Source of the DNA: a virus
Virus genome (UHGV): UHGV-0174779
Length of the DNA stretch: 64,000 bases
Direction: 5' to 3' (one strand)
Position numbers and translations under genes: made by a program. The notes beneath the pieces are model-generated. The model searched no databases and was not told the origin of the DNA. It saw only the letters and a program-made list of their open reading frames with translations. Positions 1,157 to 42,438 of the stretch are shown here, piece by piece (positions within the stretch are counted from its first letter, which is position 1; the number at the start of each line of letters is the position of its first letter).

Positions 1157-3400
1157 TTACTTTTTACTTCCAAGACGTTTGCCTGGAATCCGTGAATCTT
1201 TGAGAGAAGCTTGTTGCTCTTTCTTAGTTACATTTGCTTCTTTCTTCTGGAGTTCCAAAGTCTTATTTTGAATGCGTGATTGCTCATTAAGCTTCTCTTG
1301 GTCAACTTGATGGGACATAACCATCTGCAATTCTTTCAGTACAGACTCATACTGACGGACCTGCTGCTGCATAAGAGCTAACTTGTGCTTAGCTTGTTCC
1401 AGAGTTGCACTGTTATCTTCTTTACGGTTTTCCAGAGTCATAGCATCTGCTGCATTTTCTTGCTTGAACTGCAACTCTTCCTGACGAAGACTTAACTCAT
1501 CCGCAGCTTTCTGCTGTTCGAATGTAGTACGTTCACGCTGGTCGAATGCATCAGCAATCATCTTCTGAGAAGAGGCCTGTACGTTCTCAACCTGTGCTTT
1601 AGTCATCTCAAGCTGGAGGATTTCCATCGGAGAAGGCTGCGGAGGCTGATACTGTTCCAGAGGCAGAAGGTATTTGTGAGTGTCCTTAATACCCATCAAC
1701 TCAAAGATCTGTGCAGTCATGTAACGGTCTTGCTCCAAACCAAAGAGAGGTGCTAACTGTGCATCTGCTGCAATCAGCTGTTTCAAGCTAATCAGTTTCT
1801 GTGCACGTTCTGCTTTCTCATTAGGAGAAATAGCTACAACAACTTGAAGATTATGACGAGCTGGCAATTGTTTAGGGTTTACCTGAACCATACCACGAGG
1901 GGTTTGTACCTCAATAGGAACTTCACCATTTTCTCGGATAAGGCTGTAAATACCACGCATCAATTCAACCATACCATTGTGAGCAATGTTACGACATACC
2001 ATACGGAGACGGTTCTGTGCAGCATTCATCATCAAACCTACGGTTGCATAAGCGTTATCATTCTTAAACACATCAGGGTTGATACCCATGCCAAGTTTAG
2101 TTACACCTGTACGTGTCTCTTTAAGCTCCTCAGACATGCCTAGGAGGCCGTCAATACCTTGAGGTAGGTTATGGTATGGGAACAGGTCAATAGCGTCCTG
2201 ACGTTCCATTTCAACCACTCCACCGGGGCGGTTATCAAGCAGAGAGCGACGGTCGTATGCACCAACAAGAGCTTTGTATCGACCATAGTTAGCATTGTTG
2301 ACGTTATCAATATAACCACGAACTAACGCGGTACGTAAATCCTGAATATCTTTCGTAATGTCATAGACTGATTGACCATAGAAGGAACCCGGAATCGGAT
2401 ACGGGCAGAAGGTTACAAACGGAATGTGAGTTACTTCTTCAGTGTGAAGGATATGCTCACCAGCTTGAATAACCTGATAGAGTTTAGACTCTTTATTCTT
2501 ATCTAGAACACCTGTACGAATGTAGTGCTCATAAACCCAAACCATAGAAGCAATATCTTCGGTATCTGTGCCAATATCAGCATCAATATCCTGACGCCAG
2601 TCAGTACGAGACCAAGCAACTGTAGATTGAGTGGTATCCATCGTGTCTGTCCAGTCGTTGAATGCTTCAATCTCATCTTTAGGGAAGCCCATAGCAACCA
2701 GATCTTCTTTAGAACGACGTACACGATGACAGAAGTATTGTGCATCTGCAAAAGAGGTAGCATGTTCATCAACAAAGATTTGCTCTGAAGGAACATATTC
2801 AACTTTCACACGTTTAACAGTTTGTTCATAAGTAACTTTAACATCTACTGTACCATCTTCATTCTCTTCAGTGAAGATTTCCAGATTCTTAAGTCCACCA
2901 GCTTCTAGTCCCTGAACATATGCAGCCAATGCTTCCGGTGGTACACCTTCAGCTTCTTCAGTTTGAGTAGAAGTGTGCTCATCCCAATAGTATTTGATAA
3001 AAGAGTTACGAGTAACCAGGCATTCTTGTGCAGCAGAAGAGATAATATTGTATCCCGGATTGTCACGCAGAAGAATTTGGTTAACTAATTTAGTTGCTAC
3101 ATCAGCAGCATCAGAATCCTGTTGGTTGTCAGCTACGAAAGTAACCGCTTCATCACCAGAACAGAATACGTTAATAATATCTTGCAGTGTACCGTTAACA
3201 GATTCCCAAACAGTACGATCTACCCAACTAGAGCTGCCAGCAGTTACTGGTGCAGGTAAGTTACCATAGAAATATTCCCAAGCTTCACGAGCATAGCCCT
3301 TAACAGCCGTGTCAACGTAACCTTGAGCGTAATTAAAACGACGTTGAAGGTCAACACGTAACTCGTCCAACACCTCTTCACTATATTTTTGCTTAGCCAT
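1157..3400 (-). CDS. portal protein (putative)
   Basis: 747-aa ORF immediately downstream of terminase large subunit; size and position typical of portal; RBS GAGGGAGAG upstream. Confidence 0.6.
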   Translation of the reverse strand: MAKQKYSEEVLDELRVDLQRRFNYAQGYVDTAVKGYAREAWEYFYGNLPAPVTAGSSSWVDRTVWESVNGTLQDIINVFCSGDEAVTFVADNQQDSDAADVATKLVNQILLRDNPGYNIISSAAQECLVTRNSFIKYYWDEHTSTQTEEAEGVPPEALAAYVQGLEAGGLKNLEIFTEENEDGTVDVKVTYEQTVKRVKVEYVPSEQIFVDEHATSFADAQYFCHRVRRSKEDLVAMGFPKDEIEAFNDWTDTMDTTQSTVAWSRTDWRQDIDADIGTDTEDIASMVWVYEHYIRTGVLDKNKESKLYQVIQAGEHILHTEEVTHIPFVTFCPYPIPGSFYGQSVYDITKDIQDLRTALVRGYIDNVNNANYGRYKALVGAYDRRSLLDNRPGGVVEMERQDAIDLFPYHNLPQGIDGLLGMSEELKETRTGVTKLGMGINPDVFKNDNAYATVGLMMNAAQNRLRMVCRNIAHNGMVELMRGIYSLIRENGEVPIEVQTPRGMVQVNPKQLPARHNLQVVVAISPNEKAERAQKLISLKQLIAADAQLAPLFGLEQDRYMTAQIFELMGIKDTHKYLLPLEQYQPPQPSPMEILQLEMTKAQVENVQASSQKMIADAFDQRERTTFEQQKAADELSLRQEELQFKQENAADAMTLENRKEDNSATLEQAKHKLALMQQQVRQYESVLKELQMVMSHQVDQEKLNEQSRIQNKTLELQKKEANVTKKEQQASLKDSRIPGKRLGSKK

Positions 3401-3460: not shown

Positions 3461-5002
3461 TTAGTAGCTCTGATTCCATCTGCTTACGTTTGCCTCATAC
3501 AAAGAAGCGCTTCCGTAGCTAACATCATGCTTAGAGCGACCACGATGTGTAACAGAGCACGCTGAATAGCGCATTGCATCCATTAAGTCATCATGTTCTT
3601 TAATAATCTTACCAACCTTACGGTGATATCTAGCTTTCTCTTCGAATAGCTTAGCGTTAGCGGCTGTGTTAAAGATTTTAAAGCGTCCACTCATCATTCT
3701 TTCACGGATATCTGTGATTCCCGGTTCTACAAAGAAGTTCTTTTTACCATCCATTCCAATTTTGTTGTAGAAGGTATCACTCTGTACGTTAACTCCTGCA
3801 TTCTTATAGAATTGAGCAACAGATGAACCACTACCTTTCTCAATATTGTCCGCATCATGCGGTAGGATGACAGGAATCCACTGACCACGACCATTAATAG
3901 CTGGAGCATGATACACTGGAGTAAAGCCACCTTCTTTATATGAGTCGTAAACATAGATAGTATCCGTGTTTGCGTCGTAAGCTGTCCAAACAGCAGCAGT
4001 TGGGTGATCAATACCAATATCAATTGCACAGACACGTTTCCACGTATCAGGAATTTCGAATGGTTCACATTTAATTGTGTCATCCGATACATCGTAAATC
4101 AAACCACTTCCTAACAATGGCATACCTTTTGAACGCATCTCTAATTGCCACGCTGGAATACCTTCAGTCATATCTTTTATATCTTGGTCAGTGATATGTC
4201 CACCTAGGTCTGCATGAGCATCCCACCAAGAAGCATTCTGGAAATATAGAGAACCTGTGTTCTCATCTCCTTCACCTTTCATAAATTTATCTACCAGTTC
4301 AGTTAAACCGTTCTCTGGTGTAGCTGTAATTGTAACTAGACCTTTAGTTGTGAGTGTACGTGTGACGCACTGTGCGAATATAGCCATAGACTCGTATGGA
4401 TCTTCTTCGTCTAACCAAATGTAATCAACTGTTGCACCCATCAATGTGTGTTCACCCTGTTGGGTTGAACGGAATTCTAATGTACTTAAACCGTCAAACT
4501 CTCCTCTCTCATTTTGATGTTTGATTTGTACGATTTGAAGTTTGTTACCATCTCGTTCTATCGTATCAATGACGATAGCATCACGAGGAATGACACCTGT
4601 CCCTAATAAATTTGTATCCTTTCCGATAGGTGTACCAAACAATTCCTTTTGCAATACTTTCCTTGTGGAATCCCCTGTAATACCAACTGCCCATGCTAAG
4701 ATAGGTCTTTTAAATTTATATCCTGTCCACCAAGTTGGGTAGCGACCTGTGACATGACAAGCAAACTCGTATGCCTCGCTATAAGATTTACCAACACGGT
4801 TCGCTGCACACAAGAATCTAAAGCGATGCTTCAATCCTGCTGCATAAAATTTCTTTTGGAAGTCATACGCCTTGAAAGACAAAATCCTATTATACTTCCT
4901 CCATTGGTCACGCTCTTTCAACATATTCAATAGTGCTTTCTTTTCATCTACACTAAGGTTGTTACCAGTTAGAGCTTCATAAATTTGTTTATCTAATGAC
5001 AT
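3461..5002 (-). CDS. terminase large subunit
   Basis: 513 aa; P-loop-like motif (FLCAANRVGKSYS) in N-terminal ATPase region, C-terminal nuclease-like region; RBS GGAGGAAG. Confidence 0.8.
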   Translation of the reverse strand: MSLDKQIYEALTGNNLSVDEKKALLNMLKERDQWRKYNRILSFKAYDFQKKFYAAGLKHRFRFLCAANRVGKSYSEAYEFACHVTGRYPTWWTGYKFKRPILAWAVGITGDSTRKVLQKELFGTPIGKDTNLLGTGVIPRDAIVIDTIERDGNKLQIVQIKHQNERGEFDGLSTLEFRSTQQGEHTLMGATVDYIWLDEEDPYESMAIFAQCVTRTLTTKGLVTITATPENGLTELVDKFMKGEGDENTGSLYFQNASWWDAHADLGGHITDQDIKDMTEGIPAWQLEMRSKGMPLLGSGLIYDVSDDTIKCEPFEIPDTWKRVCAIDIGIDHPTAAVWTAYDANTDTIYVYDSYKEGGFTPVYHAPAINGRGQWIPVILPHDADNIEKGSGSSVAQFYKNAGVNVQSDTFYNKIGMDGKKNFFVEPGITDIRERMMSGRFKIFNTAANAKLFEEKARYHRKVGKIIKEHDDLMDAMRYSACSVTHRGRSKHDVSYGSASLYEANVSRWNQSY

Positions 5003-5071: not shown

Positions 5072-5545
5072 TTAACTCTCGTCCGCTTCCTCCCCCTTTT
5101 CAGCGTCCTCAGAGTTGTCTTCTTCTGGAGGCATAACGTCGATACCAAGTGCTCCAGTCAAGAAGTCCTTGATTTGTGCATTCAGTGAATCTTCGTTGAT
5201 TACATTCTCTTCCTCAATCTTAACTTCAACAGAGGCCGCCTTAGGATATACCAGATCTGCAACTTTTGATGCAGCCTTGAATCTAAGATCAGGTGGAATA
5301 TTGGGATCTTCGTAAATTTGAATTAACACTTCATCAGGAGACAAATGACTTGCAGCAACACGGTCCAACATTAATTGTGTCAGCTTACCTCTACTACCTT
5401 TGGGTCGTCCGAATTTATTTCCCTTTTGAAACTTCCCATTGCTTGGGTTCATACCACGGCCTTCAAGTTCTTCCGTTACTCCGGGTAATCTTCCTGTAAT
5501 CTCAGCTACCTGTGCAGGCGTGAGTTCTCCGTTTTCTCCAAACAT
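5072..5545 (-). CDS. terminase small subunit (putative)
   Basis: 157 aa, basic G/K/R-rich DNA-binding-like segment (GNKFGRPKGSRGK), acidic C-terminus, directly upstream of terL. Confidence 0.4.
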   Translation of the reverse strand: MFGENGELTPAQVAEITGRLPGVTEELEGRGMNPSNGKFQKGNKFGRPKGSRGKLTQLMLDRVAASHLSPDEVLIQIYEDPNIPPDLRFKAASKVADLVYPKAASVEVKIEEENVINEDSLNAQIKDFLTGALGIDVMPPEEDNSEDAEKGEEADES

Positions 5546-5601: not shown

Positions 5602-6003
5602 TTACTTACAATCACCAACGGACAGATTAAACATCTTACCTAGAGCAATCGTCTCACCTTCCCACGGAAGTTCTGCACCCTTTCCTTCCTCTAAAAGAAT
5701 AGAGCCGTCGACCAAAAATTTTTCGTAGTCTCGCAGTGCGTCGTCTACTAATTCACTCTTGTGAATCCACGTAATTGTTTCTGTACCATCTTCTTCGATG
5801 CGAACATCACGATGCCATTCATCTTTGGAGGTAATGTAATCATGGAGCATTTCATATTCAGCTTCTTCAATCATCTCAATCATTGCACGAGCATAGTCAG
5901 GGAGGTGATCATATTTAGTAGATTCGTATTCAACTACTTCCAGAGTAGATGGTTGTGTTTTAGTTTTAGAATCAGGGCGAGTAGTGTGGATTAAATCTAA
6001 CAT
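5602..6003 (-). CDS. hypothetical protein (133 aa)
   Basis: ORF in minus-strand block, acidic product. Confidence 0.4.
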   Translation of the reverse strand: MLDLIHTTRPDSKTKTQPSTLEVVEYESTKYDHLPDYARAMIEMIEEAEYEMLHDYITSKDEWHRDVRIEEDGTETITWIHKSELVDDALRDYEKFLVDGSILLEEGKGAELPWEGETIALGKMFNLSVGDCK

Positions 6004-6006
6004 AAA

Positions 6007-6234
6007 TTAATATTCCTTATAAGTGTGTGGTTTGATAGTGGTGAACGCTCGGAAAAATAACCATCCTAGGCTACTAACTTCCATCGTTGCATCAAATTCT
6101 TCATCGTCATCTAAGTCAACCAGACGACCAATGCATTCTAATTCTTCAGGGGATATCTTAACAAAGGCACAAGTCTCTGTTCTGAACCGTGGAATCACCT
6201 CTGATAAAAAGTCTAATATTAAATTCATGATCAA
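6007..6234 (-). CDS. hypothetical protein (75 aa)
   Basis: ORF tightly packed with neighbours. Confidence 0.3.
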   Translation of the reverse strand: MIMNLILDFLSEVIPRFRTETCAFVKISPEELECIGRLVDLDDDEEFDATMEVSSLGWLFFRAFTTIKPHTYKEY

Positions 6235-6587
6235 TCTCCATAATCTAATTTAACCAACCGTCCGCCTAGGTATCCATAATTTTCTGGCTTAAGGTCTGAC
6301 AGGTAAAATTCTTTAGGAAGGGAGCCTTTCAAGGTGTGAAGCTCTGCCATCCACAATCCTCTGTGCTTAACCACCTTACACCTCTTCATTATTACTAAGA
6401 AACCAAACTTATCAGAGAAGACTACAGGACAAAGGTTGGGGTCTTTCATCTCAGAGAAATGTCTCTCTTGTAGGTTAGCAAGAATCCCTTTTAAGAAAAG
6501 CTTCCAAGATTTAAAAGTAGGAATCTTGATAGCATAACCTCTGAACAATATAACTGACCTAGTACAACCTCTTAAATCCAATCTCAT
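6231..6587 (-). CDS. hypothetical protein (118 aa)
   Basis: ORF overlapping neighbours by ATGA. Confidence 0.4.
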   Translation of the reverse strand: MRLDLRGCTRSVILFRGYAIKIPTFKSWKLFLKGILANLQERHFSEMKDPNLCPVVFSDKFGFLVIMKRCKVVKHRGLWMAELHTLKGSLPKEFYLSDLKPENYGYLGGRLVKLDYGD

Positions 6588-6694
6588 AATTCATCTCCCT
6601 TCTTTATTCCTAATAAGTCAGCGGCTATGTAACCAAACACAACAACAATAGGAACAGTGACAAAAAGAATTAAACCCAACAGTAACCATCCCAT
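6584..6694 (-). CDS. small hydrophobic peptide (36 aa, MGWLLLGLILFVTVPIVVVFGYIAADLL...)
   Basis: Alternative frame to track ORF 6618-6830; single predicted TM helix; stop overlaps ATG of next gene (ATGA). Speculative. Confidence 0.2.
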   Translation of the reverse strand: MGWLLLGLILFVTVPIVVVFGYIAADLLGIKKGDEL

Positions 6695-6871
6695 ACTTTT
6701 GTCCTCTGAGTAAAAAAAAATATAAAGGGCACATCATAAGACCTACCCGTAAAGGCCACCTCACATTAACACCCGTGAGTATACCTGTATTCCTTTTCGT
6801 AGTCTTCTTCAGAGAAGCTACCATATTCATCTTCAGTCATACATCCCTCTGATAAAAGTTAAAACATAAAG

Positions 6872-6932
6872 GGGACGTCATGTTAAGGCACTATCACATT
6901 AAGGCCATGTCACGTTAAGGCTACTTCATGTG
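6872..6932. repeat. three tandem ~18-bp iteron-like repeats (core TCAYRTTAAGGC)
   Basis: GTCATGTTAAGGCAC / ATCACATTAAGGCCA / GTCACGTTAAGGCTA read directly from sequence. Confidence 0.6.
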
Positions 6933-7097
6933 CAGTATCCAATCCCGTAATTAAACCCTCCATAGTTATATATAAGAGTTTAAAATCCTGATTTGACCGA
7001 GTGGGGCTAGCCGCTTCCCGCGCGTTTCCTAAAAAGGGGGAGTCCTCATTTAAAAAAGGGTTATTGGCAATGCCTTTACACCTCCTTCCACGTTCCA

Positions 7098-7535
7098 ACC
7101 TTTCCCCGTGCCTACTCCCCGTTATTCTTTCCCCGTGTATACTACCCAATACATTACCTACCCGTTTATTTAGTTCCCCTTTAAAGAGTGGATGAGAGGC
7201 TAGTCTTCCACTGTACCAATAGATTGAGGCGATATAATGCCCATGAGTAATAGTCACAAGCCCCCATAGTTTGAATGTAAATGATTCTAAATGTAATGAT
7301 TATGAGTGCAATAATGATGTATGTATTAATTAAGTGGATGATTGTATTTCTTTTAATAATTTCTTTTATTCCTTTCTTTTTTCAGCGTTCTGTTGGTCTT
7401 TTTCTTTTATGAGTTGATGATTATTTAAGTGGTATATTACTACCGCACTATCTAGCTACCTTTCCCCGTGGTCTGTCCTGCGGTTGTATGTCCCCGTCCT
7501 ATATAGATAGTAGAAATAGTTTACCCGTGGGCTTG
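7098..7535. repeat. cluster of CCCCGTG / CCCGT motifs flanking an AT-rich tract
   Basis: CTTTCCCCGTG occurs 3 times (about 7100, 7128, 7460) and about 10 CCCGT copies occur on one strand between 6740 and 7530; AT-rich stretch 7260-7440. Confidence 0.55.
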
Positions 7536-7594
7536 CTTTCCTTATCAGGTAGTGGTAAATTGAATCTATCGATTGAGTGGTTGGAGTAGTAGAG

Positions 7595-7762
7595 ATGATA
7601 ATCTTAGTAATGATGGTAATAGCTGTAGTGCTTCCTTTACTTGCTCTGATTGTTAGTGAAGTGGTTGAGTTGTTCACTGACAAAAGATTAGAAGTAGTTG
7701 ATAAACCAAGCAAGTTTGATGGTGCTCAGTTTAGTAGTAAGAAAGTTGAAATTAATTGTTGA
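7595..7762 (+). CDS. small membrane protein (55 aa)
   Basis: ATG with GGAG 8 nt upstream; hydrophobic N-terminal helix. Confidence 0.25.
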   Translation: MIILVMMVIAVVLPLLALIVSEVVELFTDKRLEVVDKPSKFDGAQFSSKKVEINC

Positions 7763-7787
7763 CATGTTAGGTAGTAAGAAATATATT
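7759..7787 (+). promoter_or_regulatory. sigma70-type promoter (TTGACA-17-TATATT)
   Basis: Consensus -35 and near-consensus -10 about 40 nt upstream of ATG 7829. Confidence 0.5.
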
Positions 7788-7828
7788 TATCTCATTGAAA
7801 CGAAGCATACCAACTAAAGGAATCAATC

Positions 7829-8308
7829 ATGAATAAGGCAAACTTTGTAATCGGTGCTCTGGTATTAACCTTCGGTAGCATGGCTATCGCTGACAAGATT
7901 GCTAGTGCTCCAGTTGCTCAAGCTGCTGTAGTCATGAGTGATGCTGCTGACACCTTCGTTAGCAACGCCCCTAAAGGTTGGCTGGTTTGTAAAGGATTGG
8001 ATTCAGATAATGTCACTACGTTGATGAAAGTTAAATTATCTAACGTAACCAATCGTGGCATGGTATTGTCTACTCGTACACTTGACAACCAGAATAATGA
8101 GGATATTCTGCTTTCCCGTAAAGACAATGACCCAGAGTTGATTACTTTTGGCGATGTGCAGACTATTAAAGGTTCTAAAGTTGTGACTAATCTGGTAACA
8201 TATGGCACAATGCAAGAAACCATGTTAGCCACCTCTGTCTACAGTGGGGAAGATAACAGTATTTGGACTTTCCGCTTTCAGATGGGTGATTGTGTTAAAG
8301 CAAAATAA
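7829..8308 (+). CDS. secreted protein with signal peptide (159 aa)
   Basis: N-terminal signal peptide (MNKANFVIGALVLTFGSMAIA); own promoter and leader. Confidence 0.6.
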   Translation: MNKANFVIGALVLTFGSMAIADKIASAPVAQAAVVMSDAADTFVSNAPKGWLVCKGLDSDNVTTLMKVKLSNVTNRGMVLSTRTLDNQNNEDILLSRKDNDPELITFGDVQTIKGSKVVTNLVTYGTMQETMLATSVYSGEDNSIWTFRFQMGDCVKAK

Positions 8309-8311
8309 TAG

Positions 8312-8340
8312 TTGACACGGTTATAGATTGGCAGTATTGT
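8312..8340 (+). promoter_or_regulatory. sigma70-type promoter (TTGACA-17-TATTGT)
   Basis: Leader downstream is homologous to that of gene 7829 (ACTAAAGGAATCAA). Confidence 0.45.
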
Positions 8341-8375
8341 TACCTCATTAAGACAACACTAAAGGAATCAAGACA

Positions 8376-8705
8376 ATGAAAACTCTGATTGCATCTGCTC
8401 TTTTATCTGTAGCTGTTCTCTCAACTGTAGGATGCTCTTCTTCTCCGCGTCCCAATGGTTGGTGTGCTCTGGAAGTTGAGGGCACTTGTGTGATGCGTTG
8501 GAAAGATGGTGTTAAGGTTCCTGCTGGTGAGATTGATATGAAGTACGAAGGTGCTAGTTGCTCTAATGGTGGATCTGTTGATGAGAAGGCCTATCGTGAG
8601 CGTGATATGAAAACACAAGCTGATTGGAAGAAGTCAGACTTTATTTCCCGAGCAACTCATTGCGGTGGCAACACTTCCACTAAGGGTAAAGAATGGGACA
8701 TTTAA
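8376..8705 (+). CDS. lipoprotein (109 aa), paralog of 16350-16646
   Basis: Signal peptide with lipobox (LSTVGC); shares RPxGWCA..VEGxCV.RW..G.KVP.GEIDM...GA.CSN motif with ORF 16350-16646. Confidence 0.65.
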   Translation: MKTLIASALLSVAVLSTVGCSSSPRPNGWCALEVEGTCVMRWKDGVKVPAGEIDMKYEGASCSNGGSVDEKAYRERDMKTQADWKKSDFISRATHCGGNTSTKGKEWDI

Positions 8706-13966: not shown

Positions 13967-14164
13967 TCACTGGTGCCAGATTTGACAAACTAAATTCCTT
14001 TATAAACCAACCACTTAGTAAATTTATTGAAAAAGATGGTAGTATTCTGGGACTATGGTAATGCTCTGTATATAGACCCTTTGAAAATTTCTTAGAAAAT
14101 AAGTTTACTAAATATAACTTACTTAAATAATATTACTTTTAATCTCTGATAAAGGGTAAATAAT

Positions 14165-14467
14165 ATGACTTTAGAGATATATAAATTCCTTTTTGTAAGC
14201 TGTTTAACTATCAGCGTTATAGGATTTATTGTTCTAAGAAACAAAGCAGCAAGCTGGGAGAGAAAGTATAAATCTTTGATTCAAGTAGATGAGATGTATA
14301 ATGAGAAAGTTAAAGTAACACTCAACGATCTTATTATGCAAGTAGAGGACAGAAACAAGCGTCTTCAGAATCTTAACCATGAAGTATTACGCCTTGCTCG
14401 TGCTAATGAAGACTTGCGAGTAGCTATTGCTAAGCAGCAGGAGCTCTCTGACGAGCTTAAAGTATAA
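14165..14467 (+). CDS. membrane-anchored coiled-coil protein (100 aa)
   Basis: N-terminal TM helix then heptad-like region. Confidence 0.45.
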   Translation: MTLEIYKFLFVSCLTISVIGFIVLRNKAASWERKYKSLIQVDEMYNEKVKVTLNDLIMQVEDRNKRLQNLNHEVLRLARANEDLRVAIAKQQELSDELKV

Positions 14468-42100: not shown

Positions 42101-42249
42101 TAAGGAAATTAAATGATTTGGATTCACACCTATAAGATTGGAAAGAAAGAGATCACCGTTGTGCATCACTCTGAAGAAAGTGCTAATGCTTCCAAAGAAG
42201 TTCTTAAAGGAGAAGTTAAAGTATACGCTGAAGTAAAAGGAAATGAAGA

Positions 42250-42438
42250 ATGATTAATAAAATTAAAGATAATGAATATTTACTTAACTCTTCTATTTTA
42301 GATAATGGAAATACTATTGATTTCATTACTCTTTCAGAGTTAAAAGAGTTAGTAGATTCTTTATATTCAGAGGAACAAAATCGTTTGTTACAAGAGTCTC
42401 TTAGTGGAGATTATGTTTGTGATGGATGCTTGATTTAA
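42250..42438 (+). CDS. hypothetical protein (62 aa)
   Basis: ORF only. Confidence 0.35.
   Translation: MINKIKDNEYLLNSSILDNGNTIDFITLSELKELVDSLYSEEQNRLLQESLSGDYVCDGCLI

Follow-up and report, generated by a model that had tools for sequence, protein, structure and literature searches.

Positions 6700-7600 of the window, by which we mean the whole 64,000-nucleotide stretch of viral DNA that was analysed, very probably (we would put it at about 0.85, on sequence comparison) represent the concatemer junction of a Kuravirus (phiEco32-like) E. coli podophage whose assembly is circularly permuted. The initial annotation had proposed either a replication origin or a genome terminus, terminal repeat or packaging region, and it was the second proposal that was borne out: positions 7009-7201 are the homologue of the mapped direct terminal repeats (DTRs) of phiEco32 and YF01, with 88-96% identity over the full 193 bp. 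The region thus reads as a genome end and packaging site, and a replication origin is not demonstrated. All of the features that had been noted here (tandem repeats, CCCGT motifs, AT tract and gene layout) recur in 13 related genomes, and for that reason none of them can be put down to chance. Coordinates are collected in Table 1.

The first 193 bp of the phiEco32 record are the same as its last 193 bp, and both match window positions 7009-7201 base for base in register: alignment of the repeat covered 193 of 193 positions with phiEco32 (87.8% identity), PH444 (95.9%) and PGN6866 (94.4%), and also with YF01, whose record carries a 193-bp DTR annotated as a repeat_region. BLAST placed window position 7201 at position 1 of the phiEco32 record and window position 7009 where the YF01 and SU10 records end. 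Experimental support has been published for several of these ends. As recounted in a later paper, mapping of the DTR in phiEco32 relied on restriction analysis, primer walking and subcloning; the YF01 paper verified the 193-bp DTR on full-length nanopore reads, and the same source gives a DTR for phage Paul that was found with PhageTerm; the SU10 paper describes read coverage that drops sharply at both repeat ends. The DTR is already known for the genus, and it is by homology that its identity, length and boundaries are shown for the window genome. In the Kuravirus group (phiEco32, YF01, Paul and SU10) the repeat agrees with that of the window not only in length, with the identity given above, but also in its boundary sequence, in an internal AAAAAGGGGGAGTCCTCA block and in its place, with the TerS/TerL arm on one side and the right-arm early genes on the other. 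It is present only once in the window because the assembly is permuted or collapsed. No CDS was annotated over the DTR itself in the 11 annotated relative records inspected, and the ORFs called here at 6910-7257 (-) and 7001-7195 (+) across the repeat, together with that at 6618-6830 (-), were rejected as spurious, the alignment over the DTR having indels that are not multiples of three. An inverted repeat within the DTR (GGGGGAGT/ACTCCCC) was also considered as a conserved hairpin and rejected, as Bas93, Bas94 and Bas89 alter one arm with no compensation.

Table 1. Features at and around the junction (positions are those of the window).
Feature	Position	Strand	Basis or remark
Terminase large subunit (TerL)	3461-5002	-	PHROG terminase large subunit
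Candidate terminase small subunit (TerS), 157 aa	5072-5545	-	Directly upstream of TerL
Hydrophobic small ORF, 36 aa, left-end operon	6584-6694	-	ORF list; AGAGGA upstream of ATG
Repeat cluster A, units TAAAGGG/TAAAGGC and two CCCGT (6746, 6772)	6717-6780		Repeat families D1, D2, D5; kept in 13 relatives
Acidic ORF, 24 aa (MTEDEYGSFSEEDYEKEYRYTHGC), dividing the repeat array in the window genome	6766-6840	-	ORF list
Repeat cluster B, unit TWAAGGS-N4-TCA-N0-2, period 16, three exact cores	6861-6937		TRF; pattern unique in window
Relic of deleted small CxH...CxxC ORF, includes CCCGT at 6944	6922-6966		About 45 bp left in window
Nearly invariant block abutting the DTR (TTATATATAAGAGTTTAAAATCCTGATTTGACCGAGTGGGGCT)	6966-7008		13-genome alignment; predicted left-end sigma70 promoter
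Boundary word GGCT|AGCC, perfect 8-bp palindrome	7005-7012		Putative terminase cut or nick site
Direct terminal repeat (DTR), 193 bp	7009-7201		Homology to DTRs of relatives; single copy in window
Four co-oriented YCCCGT inside the DTR (7105, 7118, 7132, 7161; spacing 13, 14, 29)	7100-7170	+	
Boundary word GGCT|AGTC	7198-7205		Second putative cut or nick site
AT-rich tract with invariant blocks CCCCATAGTT (7262-7271) and TTATGAGTGCAATAATGATGTATGTATTAATTAAGTGG (7300-7337)	7260-7440		Composition, alignment
Extended -10 element TGgTATATT, putative sigma70 early promoter, start near 7445	7430-7438	+	Alignment
Right-hand cluster, three YCCCGT (7465, 7493, 7524; spacing 28, 31)	7460-7530	+	
Hydrophobic small ORF, 55 aa, first right-arm gene	7595-7762	+	phrog_7482
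Sigma70 promoter TTGACA-17-TATATT, 11/12	7759-7787	+	Promoter scan
ORF, 159 aa, homologue of C-terminal part of phi32_128-type early protein	7829-8308	+	phrog_21410, phrog_36409

The two edges of the repeat share a short word. GGCT|AG lies at 7008|7009 and 7201|7202, 193 bp apart, both copies are kept in 13 aligned genomes, and the fuller pattern GGCTAG[CT]C occurs in the 64-kb window only at 7005 and 7198. The boundary at 7005-7012 aligns to the record ends of phiEco32, YF01, SU10 and IME267, and the IME267 record begins and finishes exactly at GGCT|AG boundaries. The nearly invariant block on the left of the DTR possibly holds a terminase site; in the S2 table of the SU10 paper the matching region is listed as a potential sigma70 promoter upstream of CDS1.

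The gene layout agreed with what had been described, a site between a leftward packaging block and rightward early genes, as the portal, TerL and TerS-like ORFs run leftward and small early-type ORFs rightward, the DTR separating the terminase/structural arm from the right-arm early genes. TerL was 99% identical in amino acid sequence to those of phiEco32 and MN03, and 37-39% identical to TerL of the LUZ24/PaP3/tf type. For the candidate TerS, a family profile gave weak matches to NV1 TerS (7joq, E=9.5e-4) and PaP3 TerS (6w7t, E=0.043), 11 of 30 homologues matched DUF5681, and the YF01 paper assigns the same ORF as TerS. A single-sequence phmmer search of this ORF against PDB sequences gave no match, and a Foldseek search of the PDB with its AF2 model (pLDDT 67) gave nothing significant, PaP3 TerS being ranked fourth (E=1.7). 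The first right-arm ORF is annotated in MN05, NJ01, O18-011 and Bas93/94. On the left side the window genome, unlike its Kuravirus relatives, has lost a CxH...CxxC ORF between the DTR and the tandem repeats ('iterons'); at the corresponding site 12 of 13 relatives encode a protein of 53-69 aa, the longest ORF in O18-011 being a different one of 52 aa. As a result of this loss the iterons are only 94-142 bp from the DTR in the window genome.

On this arrangement the virion genome would be linear, its left end being the reverse complement of position 7201 and running toward lower window coordinates, so that small early ORFs would be followed by TerS, TerL and portal. The right end would lie at 7009, after the second DTR copy, and the right-arm early genes would read away from 7009.

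The claim of about ten CCCGT motifs was accurate: there are 10 in 6700-7600, all on the + strand, the reverse-strand form ACGGG being absent from that interval. With 25 copies in the other 63 kb, this amounts to an approximately 28-fold enrichment (Poisson P ~7e-12). The longer motif said to occur three times, CTTTCCCCGTG, was likewise found at 7100, 7127 and 7460 and nowhere else in the window. Apart from the copy that remains from the deleted small gene, the motifs form clusters, phased at about 28 bp, which flank the DTR, and a further set lies within it. Across 14 genomes the number, strand and 27-31-bp phase of CCCGT were kept while the surrounding sequence diverged; the right-hand cluster had a spacing of 27-31 in all relatives, and even the divergent DTR of Bas89 still keeps the number, strand and phase of YCCCGT (spacing 31, 28, 30). 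No cluster of CCCGT or of TWAAGGS, the motif of the tandem repeats, was present elsewhere in the 64-kb window. These co-oriented, phased arrays, within the DTR and to its left and right, are our best candidates for a terminase recognition signal, although this assignment is a tentative one. A Chi-like role for the motifs in protecting the ends was considered and rejected, since their genomic orientation does not change between the two ends, so that relative to each end they point in opposite directions. We found no description of the CCCGT and TWAAGGS arrays at the junction in the literature, and regard them as a modest detail.

Three tandem repeats of about 18 bp had also been reported. The three tandem copies were confirmed, but their period is 16 bp: TRF returned a period-16 array at 6883-6921 (2.4 copies, score 50), and the 12-mer TCAYRTWAAGGC occurs at 6878, 6894 and 6910 and not elsewhere in the 64-kb window. 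These exact cores are flanked by degenerate units, giving 5-8 units per genome in cluster B across 14 genomes, and this array has stop codons in all six frames. Several relatives lack the intervening ORF, and there clusters A and B adjoin each other. The TWAAGGS array is another candidate for terminase recognition, about as tentative as the YCCCGT arrays or slightly more so. The distance between iterons and DTR ranges from 94 to 446 bp among relatives, which fits poorly with a strict cut-site geometry, and the position of the iterons between small early genes means that they could instead be regulatory. Promoters for gp36 (phage sigma) are a doubtful explanation of the iterons, as the units hold TAATGTGA / TAACGTGA, which match only 3-5 of the 6 positions of the AATGTA core.

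To the right of the DTR, the reported 180-bp AT-rich tract (7260-7440) was confirmed: its GC content is 26.5%, compared with an average of 42% over the window, and it ranks within the bottom 0.4% of 180-bp segments. The window is equally AT-rich at two other spots. Near its end, block ATTATTTAAGTGGTATATTAYTACCGCA around an extended -10 element is nearly invariant in 13 aligned genomes. TGnTATATT itself is unchanged in 11 of the 13, Bas93 and Bas94 having one or two changes, and the divergent Bas89 keeps the element. It was not called in our scan for sigma70 -35/-10 pairs, which gave three matches against 4.8 expected, only the promoter at 7759 being convincing; the SU10 paper reports an early promoter of the same form upstream of CDS125. 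On balance, the conservation slightly favours the idea that the right-end early operon is driven by a conserved sigma70 promoter of the extended -10 type, with the AT tract as its upstream region.

The proposal that iterons and an unwinding element form a replication origin at this site was not supported. If the 16-bp repeats were initiator-bound iterons and the AT tract a DNA-unwinding element, the region would resemble iteron-type origins such as lambda ori and plasmid oriV in having direct tandem repeats (three exact cores plus degenerate units) and, within a few hundred bp of assembled sequence, an AT-rich tract that is among the three most AT-rich spots of the window; the cumulative GC skew minimum is also located here, and promoter annotations place phiOL and phiOR of T7, which act as secondary origins, near the genome ends. 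However, iterons and AT tract are about 330 bp apart only in the assembly. Because the DTR lies between them they would be at the left and right ends, respectively, of the linear virion genome, approximately 77 kb apart, and neighbours only in a concatemer or a permuted assembly; moreover, their separation varies among relatives. No match to the DnaA box TTATCCACA within one mismatch was found in 6700-7600, and among the ten flanking ORFs scanned with PHROGs none was assigned a replication function, those not involved in packaging all being of unknown function; no initiator gene was identified next to the region. Typical iterons, at about 19-22 bp, are longer than the 16-bp units found here. 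The skew minimum coincides with, and is explained by, the switch in transcription direction, and T7 has the same kind of arrays, which are not known to be its primary origin. Taken with the division of the two elements by the physical ends, this makes an origin very improbable.

Some of the same observations could mean that the arrays are operators, bound by a phage or host regulator of the two divergent early operons, and not packaging signals, a reading that would leave the DTR assignment unaffected. It would suit the iteron clusters, which have small early ORFs on both sides and ribosome-binding sites immediately downstream and whose distance from the DTR is not conserved, and the right CCCGT cluster just downstream of the putative early promoter. 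Nevertheless we consider it unlikely, as the DTR itself contains four CCCGT that are not near any promoter, no motif clusters occur in the rest of the 64-kb window, which by SU10 homology should include other early promoters, and T7 and tf have analogous co-oriented arrays centred on their terminal repeats. The right CCCGT cluster might also act as RNA, as part of a 5' leader on the early transcript that is structured or C-rich and works, for instance, as an attenuator or for Rho loading, given that it lies between the putative start (~7445) and the first ORF (7595) on a C-rich, G-poor strand and that a conserved ACCGCA...TGCGGT stem is predicted. RNAalifold on the putative leader from 10 genomes returned that 6-bp stem with compensatory change in 0 of 10 predicted pairs, which lends no support to an RNA element; a search of Rfam with 6400-8000 (E<=1) gave no match, and the same motif recurs with the same strand and phase inside the DTR and on its far side, where no such transcript is expected. 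An RNA role thus seems quite improbable. The motifs are short, as chance or low-complexity sequence without function would have them, yet the probability of the CCCGT cluster, the restriction of the 12-mer iteron core to this site and the retention of both arrays in 14 genomes, in which motifs turn over while number, strand and phase are retained, make that explanation negligible.

The preferred reading, a junction with packaging signals, finds parallels in other phages. T7 likewise has a short exact DTR (160 bp) with co-oriented short motifs before, inside and after it and with E. coli early promoters adjoining the repeat; in the T7 sequence we counted 13 co-oriented CCTAAAG around the repeat, spaced 13 apart, and no copy on the opposite strand. 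The window genome, for comparison, has 10 CCCGT spaced 13-14 and 28-31 apart as well as TWAAGGS repeating every 14-16. The likeness is one of functional layout and no homology is claimed, there being no sequence similarity and the terminase belonging to another lineage. According to the SU10 paper, Kuraviruses (phiEco32-like phages) are without an RNA polymerase of their own, which would exclude for them the RNA-polymerase-dependent steps that have been proposed for processing of the T7 junction. Podophages of the LUZ24/PaP3/tf type (DTR of 184-186 bp; PaP3-type TerS nonamer) have a homologous TerL, a TerS to which the candidate of the window genome may be related, and the identical layout TerL <- TerS <- [DTR] -> early genes. 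Phage tf, whose ends are mapped, has GATATCCC at both DTR boundaries and co-oriented CCACTGGATG repeats, motifs which differ from those of the window genome; its record annotates a 4-nt 3' protrusion, whereas the reads in the SU10 paper suggest blunt ends. In the lambda cosB R sites and SPP1 pacL/pacR, several short repeated TerS sites flank the terminase cut site, as is in part set out in PMC7672466; this offers a functional analogy, though packaging here would be of the DTR type and not cos or headful.

In the mechanism we propose, concatemers would carry one DTR per junction. A TerS/TerL terminase related to the PaP3/LUZ24/tf type would recognise the junction and cut or nick it at GGCT|AG(C/T)C, the word common to both boundaries, and strand-displacement synthesis would duplicate the DTR, following the model for T7. 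A broader idea, which we regard as rather doubtful, is that the junction carries a defined three-part signal, acting in cis, for packaging in short-DTR podophages without an RNA polymerase of their own. Its parts would be three strictly co-oriented YCCCGT clusters with a phase of about 28 bp to the left of, inside and to the right of the DTR; a TWAAGGS tandem array with a period of 14-16 bp, both arrays being read by a PaP3-like TerS oligomer; and the palindromic GGCT|AGCC word, which at both boundaries would allow a single nicking specificity to cut opposite strands and so duplicate the repeat. Lineage-specific motif swaps, to TGCATAWSTA in Crifsvirus ECO319P1, CCACTGGATG in tf and CCTAAAG in T7, would then reflect co-evolution of signal and terminase. 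The phased single-strand arrays and the boundary word are concrete targets for asking how DTR-type terminases find and process the junction. The finding is a detail on a known element and not a new kind of system.

By homology, the result also indicates the true ends and orientation of the phage genome. When a linear genome with terminal repeats has been assembled in collapsed, permuted form, the picture of iterons next to an AT tract can be an artefact. Records of this group are often deposited permuted, and ORFs such as phi32_1 are at times called over the repeat or the iterons.

BLAST searches with positions 6000-8500 and 6700-7600 of the window matched, among phage records, only 75-78-kb Escherichia and Shigella podophages at 75-92% identity, members of the phiEco32 group (Gordonclarkvirinae: Kuravirus and relatives), with the phiEco32 minus strand corresponding to the plus strand of the window. 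The points at which the alignments stopped were, at the level of sequence comparison, decisive for the identity of the region: the match ended at record position 1 in phiEco32 and WFI101126, equivalent to window 7201, and at the last record base in YF01 and SU10, equivalent to window 7009. In the phiEco32 record the first 193 bp equal the last 193 bp and align base for base with window 7009-7201, and the same 193 bp are annotated as the direct terminal repeat (DTR) of YF01. The window has one copy of the DTR, as expected of an assembly in which both copies have been collapsed into one and the contig starts at another point. Together, these end matches and the single collapsed copy indicate that the region is a concatemer junction. 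The initial annotation had offered a terminus or packaging region as one of two readings for 6700-7600, and this half of the proposal was borne out: the element is the DTR junction already known from Kuravirus, which places the predicted physical ends of the linear genome at 7009 and 7201.

The YF01 paper states that restriction profiling, primer walking and subcloning were used to map the phiEco32 repeat, that the repeat of YF01 was observed on full-length nanopore reads and that of Paul found with PhageTerm, and that 30 phages of the phiEco32 group have DTRs of 192-193 bp recognised by similarity. For SU10 a sharp read drop was reported at either repeat end (SU10 paper). The latter paper also describes an internal repeat whose length differed from read to read (CCCTTTTTTA-10 nt-CCCTTTTTTA in phage orientation); its counterpart in the window, TAAAAAGGG at 7030-7038 and TAAAAAAGGG at 7051-7060, falls where the DTR is most conserved. 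One matched record, phage PH444 (PP350014.1; 114,913 bp, about 1.5 times the group genome length), is flagged UNVERIFIED_ORG, and its length suggests that it is concatenated or misassembled.

Features at and around the terminal repeat (window coordinates)
Feature	Position	Strand	Remark
Portal	1157-3400	-	left of region
Terminase large subunit (TerL)	3461-5002	-	left of region
157-aa ORF	5072-5545	-	left of region
36-aa hydrophobic ORF	6584-6694		flanks junction
CCCGT, n=2	6746, 6772	+	left of DTR; spacing 26
24-aa acidic ORF	6766-6840		flanks junction; between the two iteron clusters
CCCGT, n=1	6944	+	remnant of deleted gene
CCCGT, n=4	7105, 7118, 7132, 7161	+	inside DTR; spacing 13, 14, 29
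CCCCATAGTT	7262-7271		near-invariant block
38-nt block TTATGAGTGCAATAATGATGTATGTATTAATTAAGTGG	7300-7337		near-invariant in 13 genomes
TTTTTCAGCGT	about 7377-7387		near-invariant block
ATTATTTAAGTGGTATATTAYTACCGCA	7420-7447		near-invariant block
CCCGT, n=3	7465, 7493, 7524	+	right of DTR; spacing 28, 31
55-aa hydrophobic ORF	7595-7762		flanks junction

Several small minus-strand ORFs also lie to the left of the region, and the small plus-strand ORFs to the right are homologous to early genes in the right arms of phiEco32 and SU10. A listed 70-aa ORF at 6618-6830 appears spurious. TerL shares 99% identity with its phiEco32 counterpart and 37-39% with TerL of the LUZ24/PaP3/tf type. The 157-aa ORF itself had no match in Pfam; DUF5681 was matched by 11 of 30 homologues, and a profile of the family searched against the PDB returned the terminase small subunit (TerS) of NV1 first (E=9.5e-4) and that of PaP3 third (E=0.043). 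A Foldseek search with an AF2 model (pLDDT 67) gave no significant match. On the weak profile matches, and on the same assignment in the YF01 paper, we call this ORF a probable TerS.

Alignment of 13 genomes showed that GGCT|AG is kept at both DTR boundaries. The window reads GGGGCT|AGCCGC at 7008|7009, forming a perfect palindrome (GGCTAGCC), and GAGGCT|AGTCTT at 7201|7202. Within the window GGCTAG[CT]C is present at these two boundaries only; as two copies of an 8-mer in 64 kb are about the chance expectation, the weight of this evidence rests on exact placement and conservation, not on count. The record of the Suseptimavirus IME267 starts GGCCTTTCTC... and stops ...ACAGTGCT, the same two points. 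A comparable arrangement was found in phage tf (HE611333.2), whose TerL is homologous (37% identity), whose ends have been mapped biochemically and whose gene order is likewise TerL <- TerS <- DTR -> early promoters; its 186-bp DTR, determined by experiment, has the word GATATCCC at each boundary. We infer that a shared, partly palindromic word could serve as the site of a single nicking specificity that would cut opposite strands on either side of the repeat, cuts which the T7 duplication model requires.

The initial count of about ten CCCGT motifs was confirmed: there are 10 in 6700-7600, all on the plus strand, compared with 25 in the other 63 kb (Poisson P ~7e-12); ACGGG was absent from the same interval. 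Over 14 genomes, 138 CCCGT lay within 700 bp either side of the DTR start, and in 13 genomes no ACGGG was found within 900 bp on either side. The four sites inside the DTR were at +96, +109, +123 and +152 in 11 genomes and shifted by 1-2 bp in Bas93 and Bas94, whereas in Bas89, where just 57 bp of the DTR could be aligned by BLAST, there were still four, spaced 31, 28 and 30 bp. The right-hand cluster kept a 27-31-bp spacing in every genome compared. Number, strand and phase are conserved while the intervening sequence changes, a pattern characteristic of protein-binding arrays, and we regard the motifs as a putative array of this kind. No CCCGT clusters were present elsewhere in the window, which favours a role confined to a single site over that of a general promoter operator.

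The three tandem repeats reported initially were also confirmed, with a period of 16 bp (TRF, 6883-6921) in place of about 18 bp. The 12-mer TCAYRTWAAGGC occurs at 6878, 6894 and 6910 and nowhere else in the 64 kb, and stop codons interrupt every one of the six reading frames of the array. Its unit, TWAAGGS-N4-TCA-N0-2 (the iteron), recurs with a period of 14-16 bp, at 5-8 units per genome in 14/14 genomes. In the window a looser second cluster lies at 6717-6780, separated from the first by the 24-aa acidic ORF, whereas the two are contiguous in several relatives. In 8 of 13 genomes an extra TTAAGGC was found some 20-30 bp past the opposite DTR boundary, and an inverted copy (GCCTTTAC) lies within the DTR. 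Read in phage orientation, the array runs from the stop codon of a conserved small CxH...CxxC (zinc-ribbon-like) protein to just ahead of the next small gene's ribosome-binding site. The CxH...CxxC gene, situated between the left DTR and the iterons, was present in 12 of 13 relatives (53-54 aa in most, up to 69 aa in three); in the exception, O18-011, the longest ORF at this position encodes a different 52-aa protein. The window lacks this gene, of which about 45 bp remain (6922-6966, including one CCCGT), and its loss accounts for iterons 94-142 bp from the DTR compared with 224-446 bp in relatives. The annotated phi32_1 of phiEco32 (296-496), which uses a frame other than that of the conserved ORF and runs through the non-coding array, is probably a mis-call.

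The AT-rich tract described initially (7260-7440) was confirmed, with a GC content of 26.5% that falls in the lowest 0.4% of 180-bp windows. To the right of the DTR the 13 genomes show nearly invariant blocks amid indel-rich sequence, the last of which holds an extended -10 element, TGgTATATT (7430-7438), unchanged in 11 of 13 genomes; Bas89 keeps it, and Bas93 and Bas94 differ by 1-2 bases. Its -35 region is not conserved, and a scan for consensus -35/-10 pairs did not call it. We infer from the sequence a sigma70 early promoter with a start near 7445 for the 55-aa ORF, of which the T-rich tract would be the upstream region. A canonical TTGACA-17-TATATT promoter, matching the SU10 early promoter in form, lies ahead of the next gene (7759-7787). 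The 38-nt block holds GATGTATGTA, a 9/11 match to the promoter motif of the phage sigma factor gp36 (tAATGTATAtA), and exact AATGTA cores occur at 7274 and 7290.

The other half of the initial proposal, a replication origin with iterons beside an unwinding element, was unsupported and is very improbable. The DTR lies between the iterons and the AT-rich tract, so that these are at opposite ends of the virion chromosome, and the distance between them differs among relatives. No DnaA boxes were found in the region, no replication function is assigned to any of the flanking ORFs scanned, and the GC-skew minimum coincides with the switch in transcription direction. To our knowledge, no true origin has been mapped in phiEco32-group phages. 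Equally AT-rich stretches occur at two further sites of the window (about 13981-14290 and about 42171-42430; 180-bp windows of 26.5% GC or less), and either could be relevant for locating an origin.

The junction reading invites comparison with T7, which the arrays and boundary word appear to parallel. The terminal repeat in the T7 record is 160 bp long, and 13 CCTAAAG are present on one strand, mostly 13 bp apart, of which two precede the repeat, three lie within it and eight follow it; E. coli early promoters and phiOL/phiOR adjoin these arrays; the architecture is common to both phages, but the motif differs. The tf DTR and the sequence beside it carry three CCACTGGATG repeats, all in the same orientation. 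The more distant ECO319P1 (Crifsvirus; TerL 61%) retains the GGGCT|AGC...AAAAAGGGGAAGT block, followed by five co-oriented TGCATAWSTA in place of CCCGT. By this comparison a co-oriented array is a general element of short-DTR phages, its motif particular to each lineage. A limited literature search found no description of co-oriented phased arrays or of a shared boundary word.

ECO319P1 (OP172790.1) also has five DnaA boxes (TGTGGATAA / TTATCCACA) within about 250 bp at ~250-500, near its ORF-poor junction region and roughly 600 bp from the GGGCT|AGC block. These have no equivalent in the Kuravirus window, and might function as an origin dependent on DnaA or as a titration site.
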